A program made the position numbers and the translations under genes. The notes beneath the pieces were generated by a model. The model was not told the DNA's origin and did not search any database. It saw only the letters and a list, made by a program, of their open reading frames with translations. A stretch of DNA of 64,000 nucleotides from Mytilus edulis (taxonomy: Eukaryota): assembly GCF_963676685.1 (NCBI RefSeq), contig NC_092351.1, positions 88,350,001 to 88,414,000 on the forward strand, written 5' to 3'. This document shows positions 3,995-51,980 of the stretch, piece by piece. Numbering within the stretch: the first letter of the stretch is position 1; every line of letters starts with the position of its first letter.

Positions 3995-4473
3995 TTTGTA
4001 CCAGACCGATACACTGAGTGTGATCTTTAAACAAAGTGCTAGTTAAAACACGTGAGGTAACAGTCCACGAGAAAACATGTCACTCTAAGCGGAAACGTTA
4101 TCAACTCCGAACCGACCAGTCTTTGCTTTTATTTCTAAATATCGTATGCTTAGCAGAGAAACAGCAAATAACAACTATCATGTCTTTGGTTTGACATGTC
4201 AAAGGTTCGAACCCAGCACCACCAATCGCATTCAAGCAAACCCAGCACCACCAATCGCATTCAAGCAAACCCAGCACCACCAATCGCATTCAAGCAAACC
4301 CAGCACCACCAATCGCATTCAAGCAAACCCAGCACCACCAATCGCATTCAAGCAAACCCAGCACCACCAATCGCATTCAAGCAAACCCAGCACCACCAAT
4401 CGCATTCAAGCAAACCCAGCACCACCAATCGCATTCAAGCAAACCCACCACCACCAATCGCATTCAAGCAAAC
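3995..4473 (-). mobile_element. Degenerate tRNA-derived SINE (bivalve V-SINE-like)
   Basis: Minus strand has B-box-like gggttcgaacc, followed by tcaaaccaaagac...tttgctgtttctctgctaagca...agcaaagactggtcggttcgg, resembling the central domain of mollusc SINEs. Confidence 0.55.
4210..4473. repeat. 29-bp minisatellite, about 9 copies (aaacccagcaccaccaatcgcattcaagc)
   Basis: Near-perfect period of 29 (acccagcacc at 4211, 4240, ...). Confidence 0.97.
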
Positions 4474-8154: not shown

Positions 8155-11100
8155 TCAGTGATCAAGAAAATCAAATTTGGCTTTTAACTTTGTTCTCGTT
8201 TTCTTCTCTTCGGCTTCTACTGTGATTTCGGTACCTCCAAATGTCATCTGCACTACTATTTCTTTGTCTTTCACAGACGAACCTTGTAGAGGTACTTCAA
8301 TCTTTCCCAAGTAGTTACATGTTGGTTCAGTGGTATAGCTGGGATCATCGTCCGTAGACATGTAGACAGGAATCACCACTTTTTTAACGTCGCTGTTCAA
8401 AGGAAAATATGACTGGGGATTTAAAGATTCACCAACCTTGACCGTTTGACCAACTTCCACGTGTTTATCAAAGACGTCACTACATTTGTCACGTCCATTG
8501 GCTTGAAATTTCTTATCTCGTGGGTCACCCTCGATGAAGTCTCGCGTTGTTTTGACTCCGTATGTATATTTCGCCTTCCGGGACACAATTGTGGCAGGAT
8601 TGTGTCCAAACAGCACTGCACCTTTCACTACTGCTAAACCAGCATCTTCCGGAATGATGATTTTCATATGAGAAAAGTTTGTCTTGAGTGCTTCCTGTAT
8701 CATTGCACATTCTGAGAAGCCCCCTACCATTAAAATTGTGTCGACACCTCGACTAACAGGATTGTTTAGAATATCTTTTAAATGTTGGACGATACTATCG
8801 GAAACTTTGGTAAAAAGTTCTTTTATCATCGCATTATCCACTTTTAACTTATCCCCGACCCAGTTCATGTGTTTTGCATATGGCGTCTGCTTGATGCTTT
8901 GTCTCAAGTCGGCGCCGTTATTTATCTCTTCGAAAGCTTCCGTTAAAGATATAGGTATTCGGAACGCAGTTTTACCGGTGGCATCTGGACGGATAGATCG
9001 TTTCTTGATCTCAAATTCCCTAAGTAGATCAAGTTCATCAGATTTGCTATCGCACTTGAACCTTTGTATGACTGGCTCACCGACAACTTTTACGATCATC
9101 TGCATAAAGTTTTCATCTACTTTCGTTCCTCCCCACGCCCCGCCACTTGCTTTGTGTAGTTCCTTCAAATTGTCATTTTCCAGAACTTCCTGTACAGTTA
9201 TATCCACAGTGCCACCTGTAAAATATTTTTTTGGTGAGGTCAGTATTGACGTATCCAATAATCACATAATCACTAAAGTTGCATGATCAAGAATTTGAAT
9301 ACTAAAATGTCAATAACAATGACATATGTTAATATTTTTATCTTATTTGGAGACTATTGTGTTGATTGCAGATATTCGATATATATAAGTTTCCGTTAAA
9401 ATTCTTAGAATTCTAAGAAACAGAACTTCGTTTAAACTCTGATATATACATCAGTATTTACTATCTGTTGTTTGATTTTACGTAGATGACTTTTGGAATT
9501 TTATGTGTCTTTCATACAAGTGAGAGGTTTGGCTAGCTATAAATCCAGGTTCAATTTACCATTTTCTACATAAGAAAATGTCAGTACCAAGTCAGGAATA
9601 TGGCAGTTGGTATCTATTCGTGTCAATTATATAAAAAAAAAAGATGTGGTATGCTTGCCAATGAGACAACTATCCACAAAAGACCAAAATGACACCAACA
9701 TTAACAACTATAGGTCACCGTACGGCCTTCAACAATGAGCAAAGCCCATACCGCACAGTCAGCTATGAAAGGCCCCGATAAGACAATGTAAAACAATTCA
9801 AACGAGAAAACTAACAGCCTTATTTATGTAAAAAAAATGACGAAAAACAAATACGCAGCATATAAACAATTTTAAGGATGACTTGTACTTAGGTGAGGTT
9901 TTGGAATTTGTGTCAAATGTTCTGACTCCTTGGTGTTTTTCCATACAAAGCAATGTAAAATATTTTGCCCCATAACACCAATTTATTTTTTCATATAAGA
10001 TTAAATACCTCATGAAAGGTCATTTACCAAAATTTTCGAAGATTCTTAACTTTCTTTCTTTTGTTTTGAGACCCAATAATACCAATGCAAATATAAGGTA
10101 AAAGTCAGAGTCAGTTTAAATCTCAATTATCTCGAAAAGCCCTATTTATATTTTTTAGCTTATTTTCATCCTAAATTGATGCTCTACCAGCTTATAGAAT
10201 ACATTTTAACTTCTTAATTTATTAATTTTCATCTAGCCTCACCTAAGTACATCCTTAAGTGATGTGGCACGTATATTTTGATTTTGCTATTTGATAAGGG
10301 ACTTTCCGTTTCGAATTTTCATCAGAGTGCAGTATTTTTGTGATTTTTCATTTTGGTTATGTTTGTCGTTGGATTACTCTTTCATCTTAGTGACATAAAC
10401 CCCATATCCACATAAAACATACAAATTTATAGTCAGCAAAGCCAGTCTTTAGAAGCAAAAACTGTTATCATTTTCCACTAAATAATGATTAAAGCCTGAC
10501 ATGCGTGTACATTTGCATTTTGAGTGGCTTATCAAAGCAGTTTATAATGTAGAAAATAGTCTTACACGTTAATAAAAACGGTAGCATATTGGTATTCAGA
10601 GTAAAATCTTAATGGAATTTTCTTCTCGTATAATTTTTACATTTCAGGTCTTTAATGGTTATTATAAAAAAGAAGATGTGGTATGAGTGCCAATGAGACA
10701 AATAGTTGTTGATTTTACTTTTCAAACGACTCAATTCATGATTTCTGTAAGTATATTAAATATGTCATAAGATACTTTAACACCAACTTTCTGCCATTTA
10801 TTGTACTGTTCCTTCAATCTTACTTACCGCCTAGATCAGCAACCATATATTTTGAACCCGGTTTGAATACTCCCAAGTTACCGCCACCACCGGAAACAAA
10901 CTTTTCAACCGGTAGTATTCTGCAATACATGGCTGCGGCCTCTGGTTCCAATGAAATCATCAAATGAGTGTCTTTTATTCCAGCCTTTAATATTTAGAGA
11001 AAATTTTACATTTCAAAAGAATAATACAATCGTAAATGTTGCAATAATTATATTGTCAAAATGGTGTTTAGACTTGAAACACAATTTTAGACATATTTTG

Positions 11101-13260
11101 TGGTTGTCTTTTTAAACTTTTTGCTCCAAACATGCACGTATGTCGTGGTCGTGTTTAGCTTGAAAATTAGTGTTTTATTCTTAAACACTCTTAATTTAAA
11201 ACACATTTAAAAGCGTTTGAAATTTATTCATTGAAAAGACATTTGTACATTTATAATAAGCTTACCGAGAAATACATGGCTTCATTTAAAAACAGAGATA
11301 TATAAAAGCACGTAACATGTTTAAGCGTGCTTCCTATATAGTTTCATTAACAAATTTCATAGATATTGTAGGGCTCGCATACAATCAAAAAGTTTCGAAA
11401 ATCTAAACGACAAAATCCATAAAATATATATATTTGATGGGAACAAAATAGAAATACTGGCTTCAACAGAGGTCTTAATTATTCTATAGAAGATTGTCTG
11501 ATCATATCGTTTTTCGATAACGCAGAACATGTACCTATAAGTGATACCCCTAACTCGTGGAATATGTACCTGAATATATGATGCCACCTGCCTCATGACT
11601 AATTAACATGTACATATGATGCCGCCTACAGGTCTAGTGAACTATTAAAATGTATCTATGATGCCGTTTACCTCTTTTAGCATGTTCTTAAGACACCGCA
11701 CACCTTATGAACTATTTACATGTACCTTTAATATTATGTACCTCTTGTCAAACTACACATGGTGACCTAGACCTCGTGAACAATTCACATTTAAAGTCAC
11801 AACAACATGAACTAAATGTTAATGCATATACCTGCGAAGCGGCTTCTCGCATGAACTGCTTAGCACTATCATTCCAGATCGCTGGTACAGTGAGGACCCA
11901 GTGAATATCACTTTCATTTAGACCAGTATGACTGGATTCAAGATGTTTTACAAGATGGTTCTTTAAAAAACGTATCCCGTGACTAAAGATAATTTGTGCC
12001 GGCATCTTCTTGTTTCCCGAATCATCTGGTATCTCAGTGTGTCTTGACAGAGTCTGAAAAATTATTTATAATTAAGAACTGAATGCTTCTTTTTTGTAAT
12101 TTTTAGGCATAAAAGCGTTGACCACAACACATTTTGTGTAAAGCGGCGCTCGTTGTATTTTGTGCAGCCAGCCTTTTGCGTCAAAAGTTCCTGTGAAAAA
12201 CGTGTTTTGTAAAGATTAAATGTTTAAAAAACATATACATAGATTTTTGGACCTATGACCAATCTGGATATGAAAAAACAGACAATCAAACAGAAAATAG
12301 TCCATAAAAGGTGTAGCAAAAAAAACAATTTTAATGTTCTTATGACATGCAAGAACCAACTTTGTAGGTTGAATTTGTCACAAGCTGTCTAAACATTTAT
12401 TTTATTGTCTCTAATTATCATACATGTATTTGAAAAATCAACCGGGCCAACACTCCTTATTGTATATTGCCAGCGCACCTCGAGGCGATCCGAGCGAGGT
12501 AAGTCACGGCAGGGTTCGGTCCTTAGCATGGTCGATACAAATGCTTTGACTTTAAAATTTGCCTCAGTGTAGAGCAAAATATAGCTTTATCAATGATATC
12601 AATTACATGAAAGTGTCTAGACTATAATTGACTGTAATACCATTCACTGAACATTATGCTGTCACAAAAGAATCAATACATGAGCATTTGCAATCACTTG
12701 AATTTGTCATTCCACTTCCATCTTTAGTTTTGTATTTATATAACGCTTTAAGAGAAAGACATCCATTTTATAAGAATATTAAATAAAACAATAAGAATTT
12801 AGCTACACCCAAGGTCGGTGCTTGTTATGTTATTATAGATTAAATGGTTCTGTACAATATCTTTTTCTTTAAGTAAAAAATAACAACTCACAGTATTATT
12901 GAATAGGGACATTTTAAATCTCTTGAAGAAGTACCAGTCTTCATGTTCTTCCTCTAAAGCTAGCTCTGCATACTTCTCCTCTGCTTCGTATCCGAAAGAG
13001 TGAAACGATTTATTAGGTTGTAACAAGATACATGTTGGTGTTTTTAATGATATTAAATTCTTCTGTCCAGCTACCCATGTCGAATTGGTTACGATCTTAT
13101 TAGGATCGGTTTCAAACCAAGACTTGAAAGAAAAAGCGTAACCGGAAAACGTAGTTCCAAAATCTATGGCTGCCACCAAAATCTTGTTTGATTTATAACT
13201 GACGGAAAAGTCACTATCATTGTTTGAGTCTTTCGGGTCATATTCTTGGCAGTAGGCCAT
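8155..13260 (-). CDS. HSPA12: Heat shock 70 kDa protein 12-like (atypical Hsp70), copy 1; join(13260-12892, 12053-11832, 10984-10828, 9215-8155), 602 aa
   Basis: Motifs AAIDFGTTFSGYAFS, WVLTVPAIWNDSAKQFMREAA, LEPEAAAMYC, DLG|GGTVDIT, GGAWGG, MVGGFSE, AVVKGAV. GT-AG introns in phases 0,0,1; total 1809 nt in frame. An acceptor at 13293-13294 implies an upstream non-coding exon. Confidence 0.95.
9636..9865 (+). repeat. Abundant dispersed repeat family (aagaagatgtggtatgattgccaatgagacaact...)
   Basis: Recognisable copies near 2570-2660(-), 3070-3350(-), 9636, 10670, 24385, 25048, 31600(-), 34112, 35450-35715(-), 43085, 58895. Confidence 0.8.
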
Positions 13261-13319
13261 GTCTGCTTATGTTTTCAGTTATCTGTTCCTGTCTAAAAAA
13301 AAAAAAAAGGTAATCCACA

Positions 13320-15837: not shown

Positions 15838-16045
15838 CTTGAATCTAATTCATGCATTTAAGTCTCTCTATTCCAATGCGATGTTCCTTTTGGTTGAATA
15901 ATGCTTAAGTTACGGTATGTCTCAATAAAAATAGAGAAATCTTGAGTGCTAATTTTTGACATTGCTTAACAACACGAGTTATCGTTCTTTTGTAACAGGT
16001 TCGAGACAACTGGAGTGCGTAAGTTTGTTCGAGAGGGAAATTTAA
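15838..16045. promoter_or_regulatory. Candidate bidirectional promoter and divergent non-coding first exons of HSPA12 copy 1 and the MIEAP-like gene
   Basis: Both start-codon exons are preceded by acceptors, so 5' exons are needed upstream. Back-to-back donors: - strand aag|gtttgc at 15837 (weak) and + strand gc|gtaagt at 16019 (strong). gggaaattt lies at about 16035. Confidence 0.35.
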
Positions 16046-17320: not shown

Positions 17321-20300
17321 ATGGAGAGAATCAGAAGGTCCCTTAGAAAAAAGAAGAAAAATAAGCAGAAAGATGATAATAATTACAGACCAGAAACCTC
17401 AGGGTTTGTATATATATGCACTTACAGGAGTTGAAATTATTGACATGCATTTTGTTTACTTTCGGTTTTGTGAACCTGTAGCAATGTTGTTAATTTATGC
17501 AAATGCATTAACGTATACAATAATAGGTCGAACTTTAAATAATAAACTTATGACACAGAGGTATGTCTGTACTGTATGTAAACCGCTATCCAAAAGCTTA
17601 ATAGTTTACCATGACTGTGTAAGAGTACAAGGCATACTTATCTCCCTTGAAATGAGCTGCTTGCCATACAACTGCATGCAAAATATCATTGACTTTATCA
17701 TAAGCGGTCCCCCTTAAACTGACCTAATGACAAAGTTTAACATTTATACCATGACTAAGAGGCCCAAACGAAAGCAAGACAAAAACATTAGTGCTTCCCT
17801 ACATCATAGGGCAAATGGCATCCATTCACATATATAATACTATATACCCGATTTGATTATCCATTTTATGTAAATTTTCATTACCCAAATTTATTTTTAG
17901 CTATAAGATTGTAGTGTTATTTCTTCCCTCTTCTTTTCATTTTATACATAAGGGAGCAGCCATTTAAGTTCAAGGGGGAGGGGTATGGTTTTTTGTCAAA
18001 GTCATATTTTTTTTATAAAGTTTTTCAATGCTTTCAATCAATTCCTTTTTTTTTTAAATTCAAGACTATGATATATGGGGTGGGTGGTTAGGGGGGTGGT
18101 GAGTTCAGAACAATTTTTGAGAACAGTGCAAAACAGTTAATATATTTACACAATTATTTTTTAAATAATACAATTGTATTATGTTTACATTTCTTGTGGG
18201 ATATTTTTGAAAAGTTCAAAGAACAAATAGTATACAAACAAGGAGGAACCTGATGTTCAGCGATTGTCGTTTTTGATGTGGTTCATAAGCCAGTGTTTTC
18301 TCGTTTCTCTTTTTTTTTTAATATAAATTAGACCGTTTGTTTTCCCGTTTGAATGGTTTTAAACTAGTCATGGTTAGGCCCTTTATAGCTTGCTGTTCGG
18401 TGTGTGCCTAGACTCTGTGTTGAAGACCTGTAATGGTTTACTTTTACAAATTGTCATTTGCAACTAATCACATCTACTTATATCTAAGGGCATCACAAGC
18501 TTTGGTGAGATTTTAACCAACAAGTTTGGAGTATAGATTTGTGCAACCACCTACGAGGAACATTGGAAGGCTCTGAGACTGATTTTTTTTTTAAAGTAGC
18601 AATATTTTTACAAGCCATGTTCATGTTTTAAACAAATGTTTTCGAACTGGTGATTATTTCAACCATGTATAGTATGTAAATAACAAACCGTCTCCTCGAA
18701 AGCAGATTGAAGCTAAAGTTGTTTTTAGCTAACCTAGTGAGATTTTCTCATCACTTGGCGTCCGTCGACTGTCGTCGTCGACGACCGTTGTCCGTTAACT
18801 TTTACAAAAAATTTCTACTCTAAAACTACTGGGCCGAATTAAACCAAACTTGGCCTAAATCATCCTTAGAATATCTAGTTTAAAAATGTATCCGACGACC
18901 CCGCCAATCATCCAAGATGGTCACCATGGCTAAAAATAGAACATTGGGGTAAACTGCAGTTTTTGGGATATATCTCTGAGACTAAAGCCTTTAGAGCAAA
19001 TATGAAAAGCGGTTTTGTACTTCCAGTTCTATTTGCCCTAAAACTTTCAGACGCATCAGACAACCCGTTGTTGAGTTGCTGCCTCTGAATTGGTAATTTT
19101 CAGCAACTCTGAATCGGTAATTTTCAGCAACTCTGAATTGGTAATTTTCAGCAACTCTGAATCGGTAATTTTCAGCAACTCTGAATTGGTAATTTTAAGG
19201 ACATTTAACAGTGTTTAGTCATTATCTTTTTTATATTATAACAGATAGAGATAACTGTAAACAGCAAACTTGTTCAGCAAAGGAAGCTCTACAAATAAGT
19301 GAGCATGACCAAAATTATCATTTGACCCAATAAATTTTTCATAAATATTTGTAAGTGCAGTTCTTGTGATATATCTCTGAAAATAAATCTTATGGGCCAA
19401 TTAAATCTGACGTGGGATAACATGTTCATCAGGTCAAGATAAATCTGCCCAGATATATTTTCAGACGCATCCGTAACTCTTTGTTGGGTTGTTGCCTCTG
19501 AATTGGTAAATTTAAGGAAATATTGCAGTTATGGGTTTATATCTTGAATATTATATTAGATAGAGATAAACTATAAACAGCAAAATTGTTCAGCAAAGTA
19601 AGCTCTACAAATAAGTTAGCATGACAAAAATTATCAATTGACCCCTTCAGGAGTTTTACCCTTTAAAGTCTGCTTTTTACAATTTTTCGTAAATTTTTGT
19701 AATCTTTTAATAATTATAGACAGATAACTGTAAACAGCAAGAGTGTTCAGTAAAATAAGATCTACAAATAAGTAAGCTTGACCAAAATTGTCAATTGACC
19801 CCATAAAAACACAAAAAGAGATAATTTTGTCATGAATTCTATTGTTGTCTTTGATATTGTAGAGTGTCCTTTGTGTTTAATATGTACCACAGCACATAGT
19901 CCAAGGTGAGCGACACGGGCTCTTGAGAATCTCCAGTTTCTTTTTCATGTTCTGTGCTTAAGTTTTATTTTGCAAAAATACGTTTTCTCGTGCTAAAAGA
20001 ATGCATACATGTAGCATATTTCAAAACAATACAAAAAAGTTTCTTCGTATACCAAGTAATGACAGTAATTGCTGTTTAATTCACATGTTTGACTCTTTTC
20101 AGTTGTGTTTCCACTGAAGTTCGAGTTGTTGTGACAGGGACAGAAGCTCAATCGAGAGTCAGTGAACTGAAGGCATGTGCAAAGAAACTAAAGAATAAAT
20201 TAAAGAAAGATGGATCGGGGAAAAGGAGTCCTGTCAATGATTACAGAGATGAGTACAGTAATTTACGTGAACAAATGGAGCAAGTTAAACAGGTAAAAGA

Positions 20301-23300
20301 TATCATCTTTGTGTGCAACTAACCACGTAATTACAAGAGTACAATATCGACACACTTCGTATTTCCTCTGCAAACATCGAAAAAACTCATACTAGATAAA
20401 TACATATATATTAATATATAAGTACGTCTGAGTCAGTGATAACTCTACAACAGATTTATCTATCGGATCACCAGCAATAATGGTGATGCATGGCTGTGTA
20501 CATTATGTGTAAACAACTCGTCTAAACATCAACCAAACAATGTTAGATCTGTAAATTTGCTTTCGCAAATTTTTTGTTCTTCCCTCGCCGGGATCGAACC
20601 CATGCTTCTGAGATATCGTGACACCAAATCGATAGACCTTACAAAATAGCCATCCAATTGTACCAAACTTATAGAAATAAATTAGTCCTTTAAGTCTAGC
20701 AAAACTATGTAGATGACGAACCCAATAAAGCCACTGAACTTGATGATAAGAGTAAATGAACTTATTTCAACACTTGTGATTTATGCATATACTTTATCAG
20801 TTAATGCTTGTATGTAATTTTGATATACAAAATTATAAGTCTGGTATCTTTTAAATATTTGTTTTAGACTAATGTGACCAGGGAAAAAGCAGCTGCAATT
20901 TAATATTTTGGACTTTAATGTGACCAGGGAAAAAGCAGCTGCAATTTAATATTTTGGACTTTAATATAAAATTCTCAATTTTGATATTTTAGACTTTAAT
21001 TCTCTGTATTTTATAATTCACTATATTTTATAATTCACTATATTTTATAATTTCGTGTCTATTTACATTTCGTATCCAGGACTTAAAATCAACATGCTTT
21101 GCTTTGCATTTAATTCTCAGTTTGGACATTGAGTGAGATGTTATACTCTGTTAGCTAATTAGGGACATTTTACCTTATTCATAATGTTTGTTCTTAATTG
21201 TCATAATCAGATTATCATTTAATATTTATTCTTTAAGTTCTAAAAATAGTTTAATCTTTGTCAGTGAACAATATTACTCAAATTAATTGTTATTTGTTAT
21301 GTCTATACTTGTCAATTCAATTGTGTATAAATACTTGTTTATAATTTCTATAAGCAAGATTCGAACTCAGGGACAGTCCATCTGTAATAAAAGTAATAGT
21401 ATTCCATGCTGAATTGTTGGTTTATTCGTCGCTAGTTCCAGAGTTTCAGTAGTTAGTTTTCACCAGAGTTTCAGAGTCCAGATTTCTCATTGCTATTCAC
21501 AGCAATCGTTCGTTGTGTGATCAGGTGCATCACATAATTTCAGTAACAAGAGGCCATTCAGTCAGGCTCTTGTTGCACGACCCTACAAGTCACCCAGTTT
21601 TCCCCGGTGACACTAATATGAGACAGAATCTTCTTCCAAATGCTTCTACCGCCTTTCTATACTTACAGCAAAATGCATTGAGTGTGTAGGTAAAGGTAAT
21701 ATCTTCGACTAGCTTTATGCTAAGTATACTACCATCTCTTTTCGGAGAAAGATAGATTATCTGTCGGACTAGTCTACTCTTAAACGATTGGAGTAAAACT
21801 AACCTAATAAAAACTTCACGGTTCAGCTAGCAAACAAGCTAGTCAAACATATATTAACCTTTACCTACACACTCAATGCAATTTACTGTAAAAGTCTTTC
21901 CTGTGTTCATGCATATTGCTGTCTAATGACCTTTTTCGAGTGTATAGCCACAATATCCTTTTATGCATTCAGCTTATTTTTTTCTTTTAATAAATTTGTC
22001 CTCCTCTGCCAGTGTTTCCAATGTCCAGATGACGATGACCATGGGAGAGTTGATGAAGATGCTGGAGGATTCAAAAGACCGAGGTAAGGAAAAGTCCATT
22101 TAATTTAAAATGATATAGTTTGGTTTTTTTTTAACTAAAAAGACTATGCTGATCCTCAATTTTAAGAAAACAAATACTGTGATCAAGCAGATGACAAAAC
22201 AAACTGTTCTGAATCCAGATTCGAAAAATGTTAGCAAAGTACAATTTACGAATAAGAAAATTGTGTATGATTTCTAATTACACAAGTGTTCGCCAAAGAC
22301 AAAATGACATATATAAAGGCAAATTTATGTCACCATACGGTTTTAGCAAATGATCAAACCTTATACTGTAAATTTAAATATATAAAGCTTCGACAAGGCA
22401 AACAGTTCATACGATTTTATTTTCATTTTTTATTGCTATTTATTCACAGAACAAATTCTCCTACACATGCTGCAACAGTCCACAATAACGAACGTGAACC
22501 TATAGCGGATTATACATACAGCGAGAGTCGGAATAATGAAAGGTATTTACTTATTAACATTTGTAAGGGATATATGCATAGAGAGCTATAAACGTCAACA
22601 AGACTGCGATCTAGTGACGACAAAAAACAACAACAGATGACATCTTGAGAGCAACTTTAGTCTTTTTATTAAAACTATGATATTTATTTGCATGTGGCTA
22701 TACAAAATGTTGAGCTATTATATATCGTTAAGAGTCTCTAAATTTTTACATCAACTATAAACAGAAACAGTTTTTATTCTTAAAAAATACACAAATTCCC
22801 AAAATGAAAAGTGAATTTTATTTATGACATAGGACACCTATTGAGGAATATGTAGGTTCTAGTAACTTTGAATACACGTATTGGATAAACACCGACTTGG
22901 AAATGATATCAACTTTAAAAATACCGATTATTAGTTTACTTGTCAGAAAAATACATTTAATTGAAAGAACGACAAAGTATCATTTACATTGTAAAAACGG
23001 TCATGTTGTATCAAGGTTTGGAACTCATTCTCACGATCAAGATCAGCTTTAAAAAAAATGGAAAGGTTAACAACTATATTATTTTCGGTGGTCTGGTCTC
23101 GTGATAACATTCTGTCCTGCGTGTTGAATTCCTGGGCGAGTAATACCAAAGACATTAATGTTGACAGAAATGGTTTAGAAAAATAGCCTTATAAATGAAG
23201 TAAACCAAACCGTACAAATGTGACTGGGTAAGGCTATATGCTTCCTTTGAACATCCAGTCAGACTAAACCAATATTAACATGTTATTTACTATATATACC

Positions 23301-26300
23301 TGAAAAGCATCAATCTGCTTCAACAAAAATTATTTTTCTGGAATACAAATTAAGTGTTTCGACTCCTTAATATAACAATGAATTTGAAATGTATGATACA
23401 AAAGACAGACAATATATATATAATTTTCAGAGTAGACACCTCACGTGTACCATTTCACCGTTCACACAGTGTTGATGACAGAAAGACAAGGAAACTAGAG
23501 TAAGAATAAATAAATAAACACAAATAATACAAGCCTACGAGAAATTGCTTCCTCAATTATTGGGAAAAGGTGAATTATATACATTTAATAATCCATTTCT
23601 CAAGTTTTTTTCCTATTATTTAAATACATTGAGATATAAAACTATAGCGAGACAGAAATAATCCGAAATGGCACTTATTCTTCGCCTTACGAGAATAAGA
23701 GATAATACAATATTTATCATATTTTAAAACCGACACGACTCTATACACTATACAAAATAAGTGGCGTAAGTAGTTAACTGAAACATTAGATATGTCCGGA
23801 AGCATCTTTCGTTTTAAACAATTTCGGGAAAGATTGATTATAACTTAGATATAGCATATAACATTTCGAACGTTAATATTACGAACGTATAAAACTAATT
23901 ACGAACGTATCAAACCATCACTACTATAGTGTCAAACAATACGAAGATACGATTGAGATATCAGTAATTATATAATTAGGTATTTTTTTAATAATTTATA
24001 CAGAACATAAAAAAAATATTCATTTGATATGACATTTTCTATAATTAGTATTTATTTTTGCATTATTAGTTATAGAATGCAAGAAGAATTAAAAGTACGA
24101 GAACAGGCTAATGAAAAGTAAGTTGTTAATTCAAATAAGCAAATATAAAAAAGAAGATGTGGTTTTAATTCAAATAAGCGAAACTGTTTAACAAAACATG
24201 TTTCTGATGGATCATCAAATGAATAAGTAATATATATATAACTTCGACAGATGTTTTAGACATTCCACCACAGTTTTAGTGGCAAACATTTTGATTTAAA
24301 GAAATAACATGTTTAAATAGAAATTTTGTTGTATCATACGTAACACACTACACTATTTCACCTTATATAGATACAAATGTATAGGAAGATGTGGTATGAG
24401 TGCCAATGAGACAACTCTCCATCCAAATAACAATTTATAAAAGTAAACCATTATGATTATAGGTCAAGGTACGGCCTTCAACACGGAGCATTGGCTCACA
24501 CTGAACAACAAGCTATAAAGGGCCCCAAAATTACTAGTGTAAAACCATTCAAACGGGAAAACCATTATACATTTTTTGTAAATACACAGACATCTTTTGA
24601 TTATGTTTTCAGACTCCAACGTGATATACAATATTATAAGGATCAATTACAGCAATATAAAGACGATCTTAGGAGGAGCAAAAGGTATGTATAGGAACAA
24701 GCTGTCTGTAAATGGACTTAATCTAGGTACTTCTGATGAAACCTATTTCCTATGTATTAAATGAACATGAACGAATTTTGTGATTCCCGACATTGTTATT
24801 ATTTATGGAAAAAAGTCTTGAATTCTGATATTTTCTATTTTGATAGTTTGAATTTTGGATGTTTAACAAATGCTGATAAAATCCTACTTTCAAATTGTTT
24901 TTAAATATATTTTTCATTTCAACAAACGGATATATACATACTTTTCTTATATTTTTCGTAAATCGTAAATATACTCCTCAATTTACAACACCAGATTTCT
25001 GTGGGCGAGTGACTTCTTTAAAAATATTTTCAAGGGAAATATAAAAAGAAGATTTTGTATGGTTGCCAATGAGACAACTCTTAACAAGAGACCAAGAGAC
25101 ACAGACAACTATATGTCACCGTACGGCCTTCAACAATGAGCAAAATCAGAAATGTATTGCAGAGATATTTTGCCTTATCTTCATAATGGAGAATACTGTG
25201 GGACTGAGAGTTCTAAAATTTGAACAAATGAATGCCAGAATTAAATCAATCAATCAATTATTTAAATAAAACAAATTAATCGCCCTCATTTTAAAAGAGA
25301 AAAGAAATTCAGATTTTCAGTTCTTCATAAAGGAGAAGATGCGATCTGAAGTCGGTTTCACAAAATACCACTAAGATTGATCTTAAGTACTACTTAATTG
25401 TTCATTTCTTATGATCAATCATAGTCGTAAGTTTTGAAACAAACTTCAAGGTCCTACTGTTAATGACCCCTAATGATATTACTAGTCCATTTTAAAAAAA
25501 TGAAACTAGAATCATATTCAAAACAGTGTGGTCCTGGCCATTGATTGACGACCTAAATTATCCCATTGACTGTGACAGCTTATGTGAACGTTTGTCTGTA
25601 ACGACCATTGCTCACTTGTTACTTATTATAGAATTTAAACTGTGGGGACACCAAAGGTTTTTAACGCCTTTAATAATAAAATAATTCGAAAAATTATTCA
25701 TGAATAACCTTTATGTTTTGATTTAGTGTCTTTTAAAAGTACATAGTGAGCAGTGATTGTTTCCGACAAACGTTCACCTAATCTGTCCCAGTCAATGGGA
25801 TAATTTAGGTCGTCAATCAATGGCCAGGACCACACTGTTTTGAATGTCTATTCAAGTTGATGCATAAACATAAGAAAAGATAAATAGACCGTACACAAGT
25901 ACACATAAACAGCATCAAGATATACATGTACTGGTAATTGAGTTTTAGAGTTTATCTATTAACAACAAAATAAATATTTTTATATTTGAAACTTTCAGAG
26001 ACCTGGATACAGAAATCAAAGCAAGAGAAGAGGCACAAAATAGGTACATGTACTGTGAACATAATGTATGTCGAATATATATATGGTCTCTTCTAAATAA
26101 AGGGAACTATTTTGAGTTCGATTTTTACGAAATTTTCTCAAAAACAAAAACATACAATAAAAGGAAAATAAAAGGAATATGATATACTGCAATGAGACAG
26201 CAACCAAAGGATATAAATAACAAAAGACATACAGCCCTCAACGACAGATCGTGTCTTTGTCAGTCACTAAGTTGTGAAAAGATAAAAATAGAATTACCTA

Positions 26301-29134
26301 AGATGCCTTTTAACGCATTAATTGACACAAAAAGAACAGGTACGGATAATGGTCAATAAGATGCAAAATGAGAATTCTGGTCACATCACCAAAAAGTTAT
26401 CAATATATATAGATGATCGTTAAATCACCTTCTTTCAATTCTTAATCATTATAGGTTGAGTGAAATGATGGGAAAACAGCTGAAAAATAACAACCCTGCA
26501 ATTACAGACCTTAGTGATCCAGATAGACCATTAAGTCTGGTAGAGAAATTCTCTAATGTATATGATAATGAATGGACGGACACAATTGAAGAAATAGAGC
26601 AAGTGACAGGAAATGAGAAAGCAGCAACAAAAATACTTCTCACTGTTGTAATAGTAAGTATTACCATATTAATTACACCTGTTTGTACATGTATATATTT
26701 GGGCAGTCTATTTAAAAGAATGTGTTCTTGTTTGAACGTTAATTTGTCTTGAGTTTATTGTAAAAGAGAATCGAAAGGTTACAAAGGGACATTTAAACTC
26801 GAAAAAAAACTGACAACGCCATGGCAAAAAACGAAAAACGACGATACGGTTCTCAAAACACACTTTTGTTACAGAAAGAGGATATGCAGACATAGAAGTT
26901 GGTGTAAAATATATGAAATGTGGAATTCTGTAATAATTGCATTTGTTGTAGAATAAAAGACGCATGTTTAATGATCTGCGCGTATACACACGTATATGGT
27001 GGTATTTGCTTCAATTGTACATAGCAGTTGTAGTCATATATATTTACATTGGGTATTCATAATTGGTTGATTGTTGAATGTTAACGTCCAATTACACATA
27101 TTTTAAAAACAAACGAGTCCTTATCGTTTGGTTTAACCACTTGTTCATCAGTGAACGTCTTATGAGGACAGTTGTCGGTTTGTACGTTGAAGCATCGATG
27201 ATACATTTTATCAGAAAACTTACACATGGACATGGACTCTTTATGCAAAATATAGTCATCTTATGTTTACATTTTTCCGGCTGTCTTTCGTTAAATTATC
27301 ATTTGATTTCCCCCCTGATTGGTCAATTCTATGACATTCTATTACATTGTAGGAAACATACTTAGAATGCTTCGATCTGCGACACAAAGGAAATTGTGCG
27401 CTGGAGCTGAAAAACAGAGGTGCTAGTGTGCAAATAAAGGTGAGCTATGAAAGCACAATGATTTAAATTCGTTATGCTCATGTCTGAAATTCAATCAGAT
27501 TAAAAGAGAAATATTGCGAAACCTTTTAAGGGCATCATTGCAAAACAACTTCAGACCTTTAACGTAAATCAATGTACTCTGTCGTGATTCTCCCTTAAAG
27601 AATTATAAATAATATCATTAGTACTTTTGGCATTTGTCCTCAATCTTTTGTTATTAGTTCTTTTTCATATGCTCTTTTGACATTATTATGTCTCACGGTC
27701 AACGAAGGGAGACACTTTATTTTGCCTTAATTGTTTTCTCTTCTTGAACGGTCTATACATTTTTATTTTCTGACATTGGATTATGATATTTGGCATGATC
27801 GAAGGTTCAATACCAGTGTGTGGCATATCGCCATGATCAAGTTCAAATTTGGGTTGTGTCACTTTGAATGTTCTTGAGATAAGAAGATGGTCTTTCATTG
27901 ACACATTCTACATTTATTTTTCTTACAAGAAATATACACCAAGAGTTACTTGAACGAATTTTTCAAAATAAAAAAGAATAAGCACAGAAATTTACAACTA
28001 TAGGTCACGGTACGGCGTACGGCCTTCAACAATGAGCAAATCGCATACCGCATAGTCAGCTATAATATTATAAGGTTTTCATTTCAGGTTAATGAAATAG
28101 CAGATGAATATAAAATTCAATTGAAAAAAATGAAATCCAATCAGCTGCAATATCTCAAACAGGTAAAAAAAACATAAATTACCATTCTCAATTCTATTTA
28201 CTCGTATTTATCAAATTTGTTTCCTATCAATTATATTTTCTATGTTAATTTATGGCAAACAAAAAACAAGATATTTTTAAAACAGAAAAAAAATAATTTG
28301 GCATGAAAAAACAAGTTTTACTTAAAATTTAAATTTTTGTTCATTATATTTAACATTATGATTAAATCCGTGGTCAATATTTTTTAACGTTTACATCCAT
28401 GGTAGATATTTTAATGATTCAATTTGTGATTAATATTTTAATGATTACATCCGTGTTAAACTTTTTAATGATTTCATCTGTGGAAAAATTTAAACGATTA
28501 CATCTGCGGTAAAAAAAAAATAATAATTTACAACTATGGTTAAATTTAAATGATTACATCTGCAGTTACATTTTAATAATTATATCTGTGGTTACATTTA
28601 CTGATTACATCTTTGACGACATTTAAATGATTACATCTGCGGTTACATTGTAATGATTACATCTGTGGTTACATTTAAATGATTACATTTGCGGTTACAT
28701 TTTAATGGTTACATCTGTGGTTACATTTACTGATTACATCTTTGATGACATTTTAATGATTACAGGGCATTATGCAGAAAATCGCCAAGAGCGTTGATGG
28801 TAAAGTACTGTCACGTATTTCCCAATCAGAGAAACAGTACTTTGAGAAATGCCTAGAGTTGTGTTGGATCATGGTTTGTCATTCTCCGCCTATTCACCTT
28901 GATTGGGAGTATAAAGGTCATCCATTCGACCTTCAGATTTTAAGACCATTCACAGAGTCAGGAGATGTCGTTGATTACATAATTTGGCCCGTAATGTTTT
29001 TACATAAAGATGGACCATTGTTATGCAAGGGAGTAGCACAGGGTCGAAGTAGCAATCATTATAAACAGGGGCGAAGTAGTAGCCAAAAACATAATCAGGG
29101 ACGAAGTAATAGTAGCCAGCATACCCAATTTTAG
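17321..29134 (+). CDS. MIEAP (mitochondria-eating protein C-terminal) domain coiled-coil protein; join(17321-17403, 20103-20292, 22013-22083, 22450-22542, 23431-23499, 24070-24117, 24613-24684, 25999-26043, 26455-26653, 27353-27439, 28088-28162, 28766-29134), about 466 aa
   Basis: All 11 introns are GT-AG and phase-compatible (1401 nt). Family motifs RLSEMMGKQLKNNNPAITDLSDPDRPLSLVEKFSNVYDNEWTD and YFEKCLELCWIMVCHSPP..FD..GDVVDYIIWPVMFLHKDGPLLCKGVAQG. N-terminal exons are less certain. Confidence 0.88.
18722..19938 (+). mobile_element. Helentron-associated non-autonomous element (HINE/DINE-1-like)
   Basis: 5' tttttagctaacct, (gtc)n microsatellite, duplicated internal block, 3' aggtgagcgacacgggctcttgagaatctccagtt. 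Relatives at about 43044-44130 and 63857-64000(-). Confidence 0.7.
19083..19196. repeat. 24-bp tandem repeat (about 4.7 copies) with alternating variants
   Basis: ctctgaat(t/c)ggtaattttcagcaa at 19083, 19107, 19131, 19155, 19179. Confidence 0.95.
20410..20631 (-). mobile_element. tRNA-derived SINE, 5' truncated
   Basis: Minus strand ...agcatgggttcgatcccggcgagggaagaac (B-box and T-arm-like head) followed by non-tRNA body. Confidence 0.55.
20871..20965. repeat. 46-bp direct duplication
   Basis: aatgtgaccagggaaaaagcagctgcaatttaatattttggacttt x2. Confidence 0.9.
21666..21888. mobile_element. MITE with TA target duplication (Tc1/mariner-type)
   Basis: ta|cagcaaaatgcattgagtgtgtaggtaaagg ... cctttacctacacactcaatgcaatttactg|ta. 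Confidence 0.75.
25516..25845. mobile_element. MITE with long (about 55-60 bp) near-perfect terminal inverted repeats
   Basis: attcaaaacagtgtggtcctggccattgattgacgacctaaattatcccattgactg is mirrored at about 25789-25845. Confidence 0.85.
28355..28765 (+). repeat. About 26-bp degenerate minisatellite (ttttaatgattacatctgtggttaca) ending at the last MIEAP splice acceptor
   Basis: Roughly 15 units; the final unit reads ttttaatgattacAG|exon. Confidence 0.9.
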
Positions 29135-32095: not shown

Positions 32096-35000
32096 TTATT
32101 TATCACTTAGGAAGTCAAATCGCGACCTGAAGACTTCACCTGTATTTTTCTCCTTAGCTTCAACAACCAATTCCGTACCACCGAACTCGATTCTGACCTG
32201 AATATTGTTCCCGGATGTAACTTCCGAACTTATGTTGATCATCATTTCTCCAAGAAGTTTACAGCTATCATCAATGACATGTTTCGGATCTTTCATGCTT
32301 GAAGTGTAAACACGAACTCTATTATTCTGACCTTTGGCACTGAAGGGCATAGAATGTTCATCGCCTTTGTTGATTGGTTGACCCTTTTCCACAAATTTGT
32401 GAAATACGTCACGACACAACACAGCACTACCAGACGCAAACCGCAATTCCTCAGGATCGCCTTTAGTAAATAGTCTGCTAATGCCTATTCCGTACGTCAT
32501 ACGACTAACTCGAACAGATATAAGTTTCGGGCGATGTCCGAACAAGACGGCACCTTTCAGAACCGCTAAACCAGCATCTTGAGGCACGATCACCTTATGC
32601 TTTGGAAATCGTGCCTTGATTGTTTCCTGAACGATCGGAGACTCGGAGAACCCTCCAACTAACAAGAAAATATTTGTATCTTTAGCAACCGGTTGATTTA
32701 ATATTTCTCTGATGTGTTCAACAAGATGTTCCAGGGGATCCCGAAAGAAACCCTTCAATAATTCTGAGTCAATTTTCAGCTTGTCAGCAGTTTGGGAAAC
32801 ACGGTTAACATACATCGATTGCTCAATTGCTTCCTTAAGAGTCTTGCCCTTCAATACAGTATACGTTTCAATAAGTGCCGATGGCAGTTTAATATATGTA
32901 TTTTTGCTCATGCCTTCTTTAACTGTTCTCTTTTTTACTTCGAACTCCCTTCCCATATCGAAATGGTCCGAGGCATTTCTTTTCTGAAATTCGGCATACA
33001 CGTCTTCTTCAACTATATCTATTAAAAGTTGTTCAAACGCTTGGTCTACTTTGATTCCTCCCCACGCGCCGCCGCTCGCACTGTGGAGTTCCTTCAAAGT
33101 ACCGTCTTCTGCAACCTGGTGAATTGTTATATCAGCAGTGCCACCTGTGATAAGAAATGTCAAAATTTGTTGAAACAAGGATCTTGAAAATACATTTTAG
33201 TTTTCCTTAAATAGCCCAAAGTTACACTGCATTGTCGGATGGGTGATGTTCTTTATGGAGATACGTCAAAAGATAAACTTTGTGGTATCCGTTCCATACA
33301 TGAAGTTCTTGATTGTTTTTTTCCTTGCTCGAAACTAAATTTAACAAATTACCAGCACATACCGATAAAACGAAAAAGGGGTGTAACTTGTCCATTCGTT
33401 TTTTATGTGTTTTGTCATTTCATTTTGTCATGTGATTATGGACTTTCCGATTAGATTTTCCTCTAAGTTCAGTACTTTTGTGATTTTACTTTTTAAAGCT
33501 TTTTTTTTTATATATGTAGGGAATTGCCAAAGCCGTGTTAGCATTACAAATGACGTTTTATAAGAGATTAGTTAGTCAATAGTTATCTGAATTTAGAATG
33601 GTTTTGGAATTATGATGCACCAATATGCCGAATACCCCCAAAAATGTCAAAGGTTACAGACCTTATGGATAGTCAAAACACGAAAAATATCCCCTATCAA
33701 TCAATTTATCGAACTTGAAGGGGAAGGGTAAGATCAGAGTTTAGCTGTTTTATGCTTATCTTGATGACTTATAGATTTTACATGTAGCTTTGATTTTATT
33801 CACCAAAGTATAATCATAAAATAAATGTGTTTATGTTTAAGTCATAAATTCTAAATTGTTCATAAACTACTGACCTCCAAGATCTACAACCATGTATTTT
33901 GACCCGGATGTGAATATGCTTTGTCCAGAGGCGTCTGAGGTATATCTACACAAAACCGAGGCTGCTTCTGGTTCAAGGGCTACCAGCAGTTGGTCATTAA
34001 ATATGTCTGCCTGGAATGTAAAAGCAAGATTTAGTTTAGTACCAATTCAAAAACTTCTTAAAACCTCCAAAAATTGCATTTCTTTTTGTCCGAAGCAATG
34101 TTATATTATATAAAAAAGAAGATGTGGTATGATTGCCAATGAGACAACTATCCACAAAAGACCAAAATGACACACGGACATTAACAACTATATGTCACTA
34201 TACGGCCTTCAACAATGATCAATGCCCATACCGCATAGTCAGCTATAAAAGGCCCCGATAAGACAATGTAAACAATTCAAACGAGAAAACTAACGGCCTT
34301 ATATTAGCATTCTTTTTTCATATTCTAAATATACAAAACAAGTAGGGATAATTCACTAAAGATGTCCTAGTTTTCTTTCTCACTGTATCGGCAAAAACCT
34401 TAAAGGTCTAATGTTTTTAATATCAATGATTGTTTTTAACGGAGTTTTTTTTTTATAAAATACTTTGGGTTGAGGTATTAAAACGGATTTATATATTTTT
34501 TTCTTGTTTCAGAATCCCTATATTTCTGTTGTATATTTGTCATTTAAAAAAGAACCCATTGTTAATAAACCTATTGCGTTAAGCTGTGCAATTTTGGTCA
34601 AGGATTTAAAGTGTAAAAGTGTTCATTTTTTAAAATGAAAAGCAATTCAGGACTGACTGTAATATTTTTTCTGTCTATGAAGAAACAACATAAAAAAGTG
34701 GTGCACACTAAATAACGCGCGTAGTGGGTTATTTTATAGAGTGCATCTATTTTTTTTTTATGTTATTTCGAATAGATAGAAACAAAATTACAGTCAGTCC
34801 TTATAATTTAGTTCTAAATTCCATTTAAAGCCCGAATAGTCATGAAAAAAAAAACGTTGACGACGTCACGGTTACATGACAAAATCATGTCTATGAGCTG
34901 ATAGACAAACCACCGTCACCAATCAGATGACGCGTTACATACACAACTGAATTATTTCTGTATGAATGTAAACCTTACACGTTGTGCAGCTTCTCTCATA

Positions 35001-36053
35001 AATTGTTTGGCAGCGTCAGTCCAAATTGCAGGAACCGTTATAACCCATTGGACTTCATTTTCATCTATCTCCATTCCTGCACGTTTGAAATTCTCTAGCG
35101 CGTGGTTCTTCAGAAAAGCTATACCATGTCCAAAGACTGCCTTCGCTTGAACCTCTTCTCCATTTGCTGCTGCAATCTTGGTATCTCTGTTCAAACCCTG
35201 AAATTATAGAACATAGCGAAAATTAAGGGGGTACATCTTGACTAAAATTAGTTTTGCTCAGTTATTTTTTACGTCATTTCTAGTGTTACTAACGGATCCC
35301 GACATCCCTAAATACGAAAAAAGAATTCCCGGATCCCGAAAGGGTCGATTCCGAAATCCCGAGCTTAAAGACACCCGATCCCGGAATCCCGATAAAGGTC
35401 CTTTCCCCCTCTTGGAACAAACATAAAAAAAATATGGATTTTACCCATTGTTTAAGGCCGTATGGTGACATATCATAGTTGTTAAATTCTGTGTCATTTA
35501 TTCTCTTGATGAGAGTTGTCTCTTAAGCAAGCATACCACATCTTATTGTCATACTGACCTGGTGCAATCTGCACAACAATAGCATGGGAACATCAAACGA
35601 ACTTGTTGTATTGGCTTTGTCAATGTTAAAGGCCGTATGGTGACATAGTTGTTAATTTCTGTTTCAATTGGTTTCTTGTGGAAAGCTGTCTCATTGAACA
35701 TCATACCACATCTTATTTCTATGTTGGCCACTTACCGGATTCCTATGCAGTAACATTTTAAATCTTCGAAAGAAGAGATAATCATTGTGTTCGTTTTCCA
35801 GAGCCAGTTCAGTGTACTGATTCTCTGCATCATATCCAAATGCGACAAATTCTCTATCCTTGTTTAGGAGGAGACACGTTGGTGCCTTCAGAGACATCAA
35901 TGCTGCTGCACCAGCATTCCATACTTGGTTTGTTTTTATATTACTCAAAGGTTCTTTTATGAAGTCCGAGGTTAACTGAAATGAATATCCGGAATACGTG
36001 GTTCCGAAATCTATAGCACACACGAGTAGTCTACCATGAGTAATGTCCGACAT
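32096..36053 (-). CDS. HSPA12: Heat shock 70 kDa protein 12-like, copy 2; join(36053-35736, 35197-34979, 34010-33875, 33144-32096), 573 aa
   Basis: CAIDFGTTYSGY, WVITVPAIWTDAAKQFMREAA, LEPEAASVLC, DLG|GGTADIT, LVGGFSES. GT-AG introns in phases 0,0,1; 1722 nt in frame. Acceptor at 36092-36093 upstream of the ATG. Confidence 0.95.
34649..34801. repeat. About 150-bp imperfect palindrome (hairpin element) in an intron
   Basis: aggactgactgtaat ... attacagtcagtcct arms with inner gtgcac/aaataac symmetry. Confidence 0.75.
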
Positions 36054-36593
36054 TTTGTCCTAAACTATTTTTAATTGGATATCACAAGCTTCTGAAAGAC
36101 AAAGTAAAGTAGGTTCTTTATTTGTAATTTCTAAATTAGAATGAGAATGGAAATGGGGTATATGTCAAAGAGAAAACAACCCGACCAAAGAGCAGACAAC
36201 AGTCGAAAGTTACCAATGTCACCAATGGGTCCAACGCAAAAAGAAAATCACGCACCTGAAAGTGGGCCTCAGCTGGCCACTAAATATAAATGTGTACCAG
36301 TTTAGTGAAAAGGGGCGTCGTACTACACCGCAAAACATATAAATGAACTAAAATTTAAACAAAAAAGATACAAATCTAACAAAGGCCATAGGCCCCTGAC
36401 TTGGGACAGGCGCAAAACAACGGCGGGGTTAAACATGTTTTTTTGAGATCTCAACCCTCTCCTACACATCTAGCCTAATATATACATTAAAGAAACACAC
36501 AACAATACGCACAGTAAAACTCAGTTCAAAAGAAGTCCGAGTCCCATGCCAGAATAGGTAGCAAAATAAACTAATTAAAATGGCAATGATATA

Positions 36594-48093: not shown

Positions 48094-51000
48094 TTATTTA
48101 TCACTAAGAAAGTCAAATCGTGCTCTAAAGACATCGCCGGTATTTATCTCTCTAGCTTCAATAACCAATTCCGTACCACCGAACTCGATTTTGACCTGAA
48201 TATTGTTTCCGGATGTGATTTCCGAACTTATGTTGATCATCATTTCTCCAATCAATCTACAGCCATCATCAGTGACATATTTCGGATTGTTCGAGTTTGA
48301 TGCGTAAACACGAACCCTGTTGTTTTGGCCTTTGGCACTGAAGGGCATAGAATGTTCATCGTCTTCTTTGATGGGTTGTCCCTTTTCCACAAACTTGTGA
48401 AATACGTCACGACACAATACAGCACTGCCAGACGTGAACTTCAGTTCATCTGGGTCACCTGTCTTAAACAATCGACTGATTGCGATGCCGTAAGTCACTT
48501 GATTGACTCTTACAGATATAAGTTTTGGACGATGACCATAAAGCACGGCTCCTTTCAAAACTGCAAGACCAGCATCTTGTGGTACGATAACCTTGTGATT
48601 TGGAAATCTCGTTTTGATAGTTTCTTGTACGATTGGTGACTCCGAAAAGCCCCCGACCAACAATAAAATATTGGTGTCAGCAGCAACAGGCTGGTTTAGA
48701 ATCTCTCTGATATGCTCAACAAGGTGTTCTAATGGATCGCGAAAAAGTCCTTTTAATAAATCAGGGTCCATCTTCAACTTGTCGGCGGTTTGTGCAACAC
48801 GATCAGCGTACATTGACGCTTCTATTGCTTCCTTTATAGTTCGTCCTTTCATTGTTTTATAATGCTCCATTAAGGAAGATGGTAGTTTGATTACAGCATG
48901 TTTCATCTTGTCATTAAATGTTCTCTTTTTAACTTCAAAGTCCCTACCCATGTCAAAATGGTCACAGGCATTCTTCTTCTGAAACTCAGCAAACACATCT
49001 TCTTCGACAATATCTATCAGTAGTTGTTCAAACGCTTGGTCGACTTTGATACCACCCCATGCGCCACCACTTGCACTGTGCAATTCTTTCAATGTTCCAT
49101 CGTCTGCTACTTGGTGAATAGTGATATCAGCAGTGCCACCTAGGGAAGAAAATTTAAGGAATTTTAAATACATGGCCTTTCCTTTTTTTTTTAGTTACCA
49201 TGCATTTCAAATGATGTCCCTTGATATTTAGAAAAAAGACATTTGTTATTTAAGATAATAATTTCTTTTCAGGAACTGAATTCTTTCCTATGAGTTGTGC
49301 GAACATTGCTTGAAAGAAGTAAAGGATGAACAATGTTTTGTTTGATATCTATGAATGCATTAACCTTTCTATTATATATTAGATGCATACTTGGCAATAG
49401 TAGCGAGAAACAAAGAGGGGTTCAACGTTGGATAAGAATGGTTGACTGACAAAAAATCATTTGCATTTCCTTCAAAGCCTAGAGAACAGTAGAAATATTC
49501 TAGAAAAATCTATCAGATAGAGTTACAAAAAATATAGTTATCTGTGTAAATCAAGTAGTTTATTTTTCACACAGCTTTAATGCATCACTATACTTGTTCT
49601 GCAGCATATTGTTATAAAACAAATGGCAGACGGTAACCGTTGCTTATCAATCTATGTTGTTCCTTTGTGCCAATTTTCATTGACGAAAAGCTATTGTTAC
49701 GTATTTGGTGTCGTTTTGATTTGGATTTGATTGTGTTGAGTTGCTGTCTCATTGACGTTTATCCCATTTTCCCTTTTATTTTTCTGTCTTACAGCACAAT
49801 AATAAAATACCATTCAATCATACCTCCTAAGTCAATTACCATATACTTTGACCCTGGTTTAAACAGCTCATTACCAGATGCATCAGAGGTGTATCTACAC
49901 AACAATGACGCAGCTTCCGGTTCTAATGCTATTATTAACTGGTCGTTGAAAATGTCGGCCTAGAATTGAATAGATTTAAAATACTTCTTACGTCATATAA
50001 ATGAAATATTATGTGGAATGTCTGCTAATGAGACTGGCAGATAAAAAAAATACTTACACATACACAAGTATTATATTTAATTCTCGCTACATTTTGCGCC
50101 TGTGCAAAGTCCGACTATCTCGACCATGTCTCGTTTGTTGTTGTTTGTTTGATTGTATTTGACCAAAAGGACCAAAAAGGAGCTTGAAATAGGCAAATTA
50201 ATCTAAGGTCAACTTTGCATGAGAGAGTATTTTCTTAATAATTTATTTATGAGGAATTTACGAAAAGTTTGTTATAATATACGAAGTATTTCAAAAATGG
50301 AATTTCGCCAGAGATTGTTATTTTAAGAGTGTGATAATCTTTGTTCAATCTTTTCATTCAGACTCGGACGGGGCGATTAAGAGATTGACCATCAGATTGA
50401 TGTGGAGCAGGATATGCTTACCGTTCAAGAGCCTGCACCTGATACCATCCAAGTTTTTAGTGGGGTTCTTGATGCTCAGTCTTTAGTTTTCTATGCAGTG
50501 TTTTGTGTACTTTTATTTGTCTGTTGGTCTTTTCTTTTTTTAGCCATGGCGTTGTTAGTTTATTTTCGACTTGTGCGTTTGAATGTCATTTTGAATTACT
50601 TTCGCCTCTCTTTTCGGTAATACCTTTTGTGCAGCTTCTCTCATAAACTGTTTGGCAGCGTCTGTCCATATTGCAGGAACAGTTATAACCCACTGAACTT
50701 CAGAGTCTTCAACTTCGGTACCGCAACGGCGGAAATTTTCCAAAGCATGGTTCTTTAGAAAATTTATACCATGACCAAATATGGTCTTAGCTGCAATTTC
50801 CACACCATTAGATGCCGCTAACTTGGTGTCTCGATTCAGTCCCTATTATCCAAAATAAAAAAAAATCACATCAATTAACAAACTTCAAACTATTTTTAAT
50901 TGTAATTTTGCCTCGTTCTGCAAATATCTCACATATATGAAATGTATGAACTTTTCGTTAAGCATAATGAAAGAGGGACCTTCTAACATTACCAAATATA

Positions 51001-51980
51001 CAGTATACCTTTATTGTACTTGTACGGCAGTAGGTTACTATAAGAACTGATTTTCTTTTTTTTAGTTGAGATAAAATCGTTAAAATCAGAGGCGGATTTA
51101 GGGGGGGCCAGGGGGCACGGCCCCCCCCCTTTTGGGAAAAAATTTGGTTGCTTATATAGGGAATCACTGAAGCGTGACTGGAGCGGGCCCCCCTTTACGT
51201 CAGTCAGTGGGCCCCCTCTTATGAAAATTTCTGGATCCGCCACTGAAAATATCTTGAATGTAAATCCGCATAATATCAATATAGCAAACAATAATGGATA
51301 GCACTATCAAATTTTGATTAATCGAACAAAACCTCGAAAATTTGATAAAAATAGAAATTAATATGGAAGAAAGAAAAGAAGGTCAATTTGAAAGTTATTA
51401 TACTATTCGTTACTCTAATTTTTGAGGCTTTTTAATATACATTTAATAATATCCACTACTGCATGTCTCTTAACTGAAGTCATGAAAATCAAAAATGGTA
51501 TGATCATTGTTTTTTAAACCTAGTTGTATGAAATCGGTATCAATCTTTATGGTATCCTAGACATCCCACAATCATCACCAAAATTTGTAAAAACCTGAAC
51601 ATATGATATGGACACACCATCAAATAAATACACAAATATATATTGCATACCGGATTTCGATGAAGCAACATCTTGAACCTTCTAAAAAACAAATAGTCAT
51701 GATGCAGGTCATCCAACGCCAAATCACTGTACTGGGTTTCAGCGTCATAACCAAAAGCAACGAATTCTTTCTCTTTATCCAGTAGTAAACAAGTTGGTGT
51801 TTTCAGAGACATTAAAGCTGCCACTCCCGCATTCCATACTTGGTTTGTGTGAATGTTTTTTGTAGGTTCCTTCAAGAAGTCAGCCGTTAACTGAAAGGCA
51901 TATCCGGAAAAGGTTGTTCCAAAGTCTATAGCACATACAAGTAATTTTCCATGTGTAACTTGTTCTCCCATCTTTTCCAT
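48094..51980 (-). CDS. HSPA12: Heat shock 70 kDa protein 12-like, copy 3; join(51980-51651, 50842-50624, 49959-49824, 49139-48094), 576 aa (alternative ATG at 51971)
   Basis: Same motifs and introns as copy 2 (internal exons 219 and 136 nt in both); 1731 nt in frame; acceptor at 52039-52040. Confidence 0.95.
51087..51245. mobile_element. Short GC-rich MITE
   Basis: aaaat|cagaggcggat ... atccgccactg|aaaat; decayed relatives near 3760-3893 and 16440-16500. Confidence 0.75.

Follow-up and report, generated by a model that had tools for sequence, protein, structure and literature searches.

A gene of the mussel Mytilus edulis that belongs to the MIEAP family raises the question of whether the MIEAP domain is a disguised form of GrpE, by which Hsp70 chaperones of bacteria are reset, and if so which Hsp70 it would serve. 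The gene lies on the plus strand of a 64,000 nucleotide stretch of contig NC_092351.1 (positions 88,350,001 to 88,414,000; hereafter the window, to whose numbering the coordinates below refer unless a contig or locus is named). SPATA18/Mieap itself is a p53-induced tumour suppressor. The data presented lead to a predicted GrpE fold for the coiled coil and C-terminal head of the mussel protein, and to the proposal, to which a rough probability of one half is given, that it is a dedicated partner of the HSPA12-type Hsp70 ATPases, docking on them as GrpE does on DnaK.

The MIEAP gene and the predicted fold of its product

The mussel protein belongs to Pfam family MIEAP (PF16026): its last exon matches the profile at positions 124-193 of 195 (E 5e-10), and its allele P0001 does so from 2 to 193 (E 5e-16; 59.7 bits versus a gathering cut-off of 27). 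A preliminary description of the window started the gene at 24070, and so contained the last seven exons but missed the coding exons upstream, from 17321 onwards. The gene is composed as follows:

17321..29134, plus strand: whole coding part of the MIEAP-family gene, in 12 exons; 466 amino acids, 466/466 identical to P0312 (RefSeq XP_071127568, Mytilus edulis)
15978..16018, plus strand: putative non-coding first exon, placed by depth arithmetic, 5' end undefined; GTAAGT donor at 16019
17321..17403, plus strand: first coding exon, encoding a basic N-terminus; GT donor checked
20103..23499, plus strand: four exons (20103-20292, 22013-22083, 22450-22542, 23431-23499); N-terminal region, mostly of low confidence in the model of the allele
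24070..26043, plus strand: three exons (24070-24117, 24613-24684, 25999-26043); long helix, predicted coiled coil
26455..26653, plus strand: exon carrying the best-conserved motif of the family, RLS..L..NNP.I.DLSD..RP...YDNEWT, to which nothing in the GrpE alignment was seen to correspond
27353..28162, plus strand: two exons (27353-27439, 28088-28162); middle part of the helical region, which is variable
28766..29134, plus strand: last exon; encodes the final helix and the beta head, with a predicted GrpE fold as far as about 29050, and a tail of low confidence beyond

From 20103 onwards, the 11 exons splice at AG acceptors and GT donors and maintain one open frame. An RNA contig of 922 nucleotides (X2 record 19) spans 26451-26653 and 28762-29315 and bridges the last four exons, the 158 nucleotides in between fitting two small exons between 26653 and 28762. 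As previously described, the last exon reads GHPFD...GDVVDYIIWPVMFLHKDGPLLCKGVAQG.

The same description had proposed by eye that the protein runs from coiled coil through helical region to beta head, in the order of GrpE, and this order is present in the AlphaFold model of the allele: a long helix (residues 81-152, high pLDDT) is followed by a helical region (165-298) and a beta head (304-354). GrpE is the top fold match in all six PDB searches (GrpE-type structures compared: 1dkg, 3a6m, 4ani and 9bls), with nearly the entire GrpE chain aligned in order. Helix 81-152 of the model aligns to the long helix of GrpE, and the C-terminal beta head that follows the last helix is predicted to have the same strand order. 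The best heptad register of the coiled coil places hydrophobic residues at 57% of a/d positions, a moderate pattern. The earlier idea that MIEAP domains are divergent nucleotide-exchange-factor folds is partly supported, as a structural prediction with no signal at sequence level, and common descent from GrpE is considered probable. Convergence, in which the long helix and small head would resemble those of GrpE without shared ancestry, is by comparison distinctly improbable.

HSPA12-type Hsp70 as the candidate partner

Three HSPA12 genes on the opposite strand form a cluster around the MIEAP gene:

8158..13266, minus strand: HSPA12 gene 1, head-to-head with the MIEAP gene
15838..15983, minus strand: spliced exon, presumably joined to HSPA12 gene 1 as its likely 5' exon (RNA contigs X2 record 17 and X5 record 24; GT donor at 15837)
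32099..36059, minus strand: HSPA12 gene 2, tail-to-tail with the MIEAP gene
48097..51992, minus strand: HSPA12 gene 3 of the tandem cluster

HSPA12 proteins are atypical Hsp70s, and a relative of HSPA12 gene 1 (P0158) has kept the ATPase motifs and matches Pfam HSP70. The 5' exons of the MIEAP gene and HSPA12 gene 1 likely abut, since the spliced exon 15838-15983 lies beside about 41 nucleotides of MIEAP transcript (RNA contig 18) that depth arithmetic places at the plus-strand donor 16019, although RNA contigs do not define transcription starts.

Some relatives of the MIEAP protein are fused to an HSPA12 domain. On contig C11 (43.50-43.53 Mb; L001:5855-7909) an HSPA12-like ATPase domain without introns continues, in the same frame, as a MIEAP domain, which takes the place of the HSPA12 C-terminal region; this copy has one stop in the present genome and a second, shorter copy nearby (L002:5727-7283), while intact fusions (P0006-P0009), 55-95% identical, have been annotated in three species of Mytilus. 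The other 153 of the 157 proteins examined contained no further fusion. Because the gene is head-to-head with an HSPA12 gene and some relatives are fused to one, the MIEAP protein is likely an HSPA12 helper.

On this proposal the protein would dimerise through its coiled coil and set its GrpE-like head on the nucleotide-binding (ATPase) domain of HSPA12, controlling its nucleotide state, and the variable N-termini of the family (B-box, very long coiled coils, tandem domains) would determine where, and on what, the ATPase is switched. Binding to HSPA12 is put at even odds, and promotion of ADP release is suggested more tentatively. Excerpts of a 2026 review describe the function of HspA12 as unknown and report that no cytosolic GrpE is retained in eukaryotes (PMC13580251), and in the portions seen of a study of zebra mussel under cadmium, HSPA12A and SPATA18 were both up, among many proteins (PMC11036304). 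The proposal would provide a fold and a testable biochemical job for the SPATA18/Mieap domain and the first candidate cofactor for HSPA12, and, if true, would tie together two bivalve gene expansions. In the literature searched, no link of MIEAP/SPATA18 to GrpE or Hsp70, no fold for the domain and no HSPA12 cofactor were found; the fold may already be on record in ECOD, TED, InterPro or subscription journals, which lay outside that search.

The protein could instead be an exchange factor or inhibitor of GrpE type for a canonical Hsp70, either cytosolic Hsc70 or, for the mitochondrial human protein, mortalin. Every fold match is to a partner of canonical DnaK or mortalin, and human Mieap forms condensates at mitochondria in the text available of PMC10845071; the neighbours and the fusion partner are nevertheless HSPA12-type, and the mussel keeps one ordinary GrpE, the only one recovered with PF01025 from its genome (1 match in 7 candidates), so this alternative is judged quite improbable. 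The N-terminus of the mussel protein is basic and, by inspection, unlike a mitochondrial presequence. The protein is also one of many bivalve paralogues and may not be the SPATA18 orthologue, although it shares with Mieap a coiled coil preceding the domain.

Evidence against a GrpE-like HSPA12 partner

Several results weigh against the HSPA12 partner proposal, beginning with the fold. Comparison of the AlphaFold model with GrpE had been suggested as a check, and although GrpE came out on top, no Foldseek match reached E<=0.001 (best 0.031, another 0.10) and Z was always below 8. In a wide search with the full model, plain coiled coils tied with GrpE (6.9 vs 7.3). Approximately 100 residues of the MIEAP helical region, which has about 135 residues in six helices, are unaligned to GrpE, where two short helices per chain form a four-helix bundle.

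Sequence comparisons give no support. The GrpE alignment comprised 28 sequences (that of the mussel, 23 bacterial ones of the ordinary kind and 4 divergent ones; a shallow profile, effective number of sequences about 4) and was compared with MIEAP alignments of 102 and 112 sequences, profile to profile and profile to sequence, locally and globally. With hhalign the coiled coil obtained probabilities of 1.3 and 2.4% and the head 0.7%, with only the FD motif aligned; the head score of 13.6 falls inside 100 column shuffles (mean 10.6, standard deviation 2.2, maximum 17.9). With the GrpE profile, 6/112 MIEAP heads exceeded the 95th percentile of shuffles, and 4/28 GrpE heads did so with the MIEAP profile. 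PF16026 was absent from all 28 GrpE sequences among the 25 of 63 Pfam families listed, and PF01025 did not match in Pfam searches of the last exon or of P0001. Among the matches listed, a sequence and profile search of the PDB returned coiled coils only. The GrpE head pattern that had been read by eye from GxxFD onwards is thus not evidence by itself: scores lie within those of shuffled profiles, and at family position 311 K (18%) and R (11%) occur, so the G is not conserved, unlike F (75%) and D (71%). The best-conserved motif of the family, NNP.I.DLSD..RP/YDNEWT, has no GrpE counterpart, and the head signature WP..L...G..L.KG is likewise MIEAP's own.

Linkage beyond the locus is also weak. 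The two HSPA12 lists covered 150 scored candidates each, out of 182 and 186. On contig C8, only 8/71 MIEAP matches have an HSPA12 exon no more than 50 kb away, and with this locus left out 3/23 clusters do (expected 1.16, p 0.12). Around three other C8 clusters (20 stretches) there are one more divergent pair about 9 kb apart, one pair 43 kb apart and one broken region. Genome-wide, the figure is 4/30, fusion included (p 0.02, 0.07 and 0.18 for distances of 50, 100 and 250 kb). HSPA12 was found beside none of 80 metagenome MIEAP loci, most of them short (22 reach 6 kb or more), and beside none of 15 bacterial loci. C8 is enriched in both families, perhaps for historical and not functional reasons. 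Two MIEAP/HSPA12 pairs of the oyster Saccostrea echinata have the same scaffold lengths and close accession numbers, a weak hint, given that accession order is not position and that one protein was picked for the match.

The fusions carry their own difficulties. The fused ATPase domain is degenerate, having lost its catalytic motifs, and the fusion proteins lack the long coiled coil. This agrees with binding but not with exchange, and speaks more for a tethered decoy or regulator than for an exchange pair that works. The fusion has been seen in Mytilus only and could represent a chimeric retrogene.

Together, the weak genome-wide linkage and the metagenomic and bacterial loci lacking HSPA12 favour an alternative in which MIEAP descends from GrpE but no longer touches Hsp70, acting as a lipid-binding or condensate scaffold, the HSPA12 links being those of two expanding families on one chromosome. 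The human C-terminal region has been modelled as lipid-binding, and Hsp70 and chaperones go unmentioned in the main text of that report (PMC10845071). The abutting 5' exons and an in-frame fusion kept open across three species would then both be chance, and a scaffold without Hsp70 contact is regarded as unlikely.

Family expansion, bacterial copies and further observations

The MIEAP family comprises 1,658 clusters at 50% identity, and 82 of 86 candidates in this genome are last-exon MIEAP matches, 71 of them on C8; at least 82 copies thus stand against one GrpE. Besides this difference in number and those of sequence given above, MIEAP differs from GrpE/Mge1/GrpEL1 (PF01025) in its likely partner; the two resemble each other in having a long helix, a helical region and a small C-terminal beta head, and the mussel gene adjoins an Hsp70-family gene. 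Domains occur in tandem (two to three or more per chain) in both bivalves and bacteria (P0010, P0012, L007), and could mimic a GrpE dimer in one chain. Another copy (L003:3778-6120, contig C2) is an intronless open reading frame of 780 amino acids with B-box, coiled coil and MIEAP domain in a TRIM-like layout, adjoined by a copy containing stops.

In a scan of one genome per prokaryote species, all five MIEAP loci belonged to 'Ca. Endonucleobacter bathymodioli' and one Endozoicomonadaceae bin, and PF16026 scored above cut-off in 6/63 genomes of Endozoicomonadaceae versus 0/14 controls. Of the bacterial loci (L007-L011, L042-L051), some are tandem and one is split by an insertion sequence. Mieap orthologues are reported absent from bacteria in the accessible text of PMC10845071. 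A tree built from 83 domains, bacterial ones included, has a star-like base and does not point to a donor; it used domains that cover more than 150 profile positions, with every second representative left out. The bacterial genes were likely captured from the host. The same parasite has host-derived apoptosis inhibitors (IAPs) according to the sections available of PMC11521996, in whose main text 'mieap' occurs 0 times; the two supplement rows listed, of three, are both host proteins. The proteome table (supplement file 4, table 10) has host mussel 'mitochondria-eating proteins' at high abundance, 0.11-0.15 %NSAF each for the two rows listed. One bacterial MIEAP gene lies about 4 kb from an open reading frame that, by inspection, is BIR-RING-like (IAP-like). 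Bacterial conflict systems with HSP70 and GrpE are described in PMC7159879, with no note of MIEAP in the parts seen.

A role of the family in stress or defence is suggested by its copy number and by its capture in a parasite of mussels. A wider and more doubtful extension would make MIEAP/SPATA18 a cryptic animal branch of GrpE that remained outside mitochondria and serves HSPA12 as its own exchange factor. The pair would then be an ancient switch with two parts, enlarged in bivalves in the service of stress or defence; intranuclear bacterial parasites would have captured the GrpE-like half to jam it, and human SPATA18 and HSPA12A/B would be what is left of it in vertebrates.

In Atlas searches with P0001 residues 278-356, the nearest named cluster was the plant GIL1/IRKI C-terminal domain (PF24994, GIL1_IRKI_C; 0.76-0.77) and the nearest unnamed clusters were Mucoromycota proteins (0.86-0.88), possibly further GrpE-like families and leads only; a bridge from MIEAP to GrpE through PF24994 was discarded, with 0/61 bacterial genomes above cut-off. 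The best match in a viral structure library had an E of 4.0, and 0/66 pattern matches in viral contigs were confirmed. Bacterial operons L052-L056 (5/41 genomes sampled) contain a large gene, about 500-870 codons long, followed by a second, divergent grpE that overlaps a dnaK, itself divergent. Tandem repeats occupy non-coding DNA at 4172-4602, 19050-19200 and 28420-28760 of the window, the last within the final MIEAP intron, and an open frame of 642 codons (3-1928, minus strand), which may encode a DUF229-type protein, reaches the window edge.
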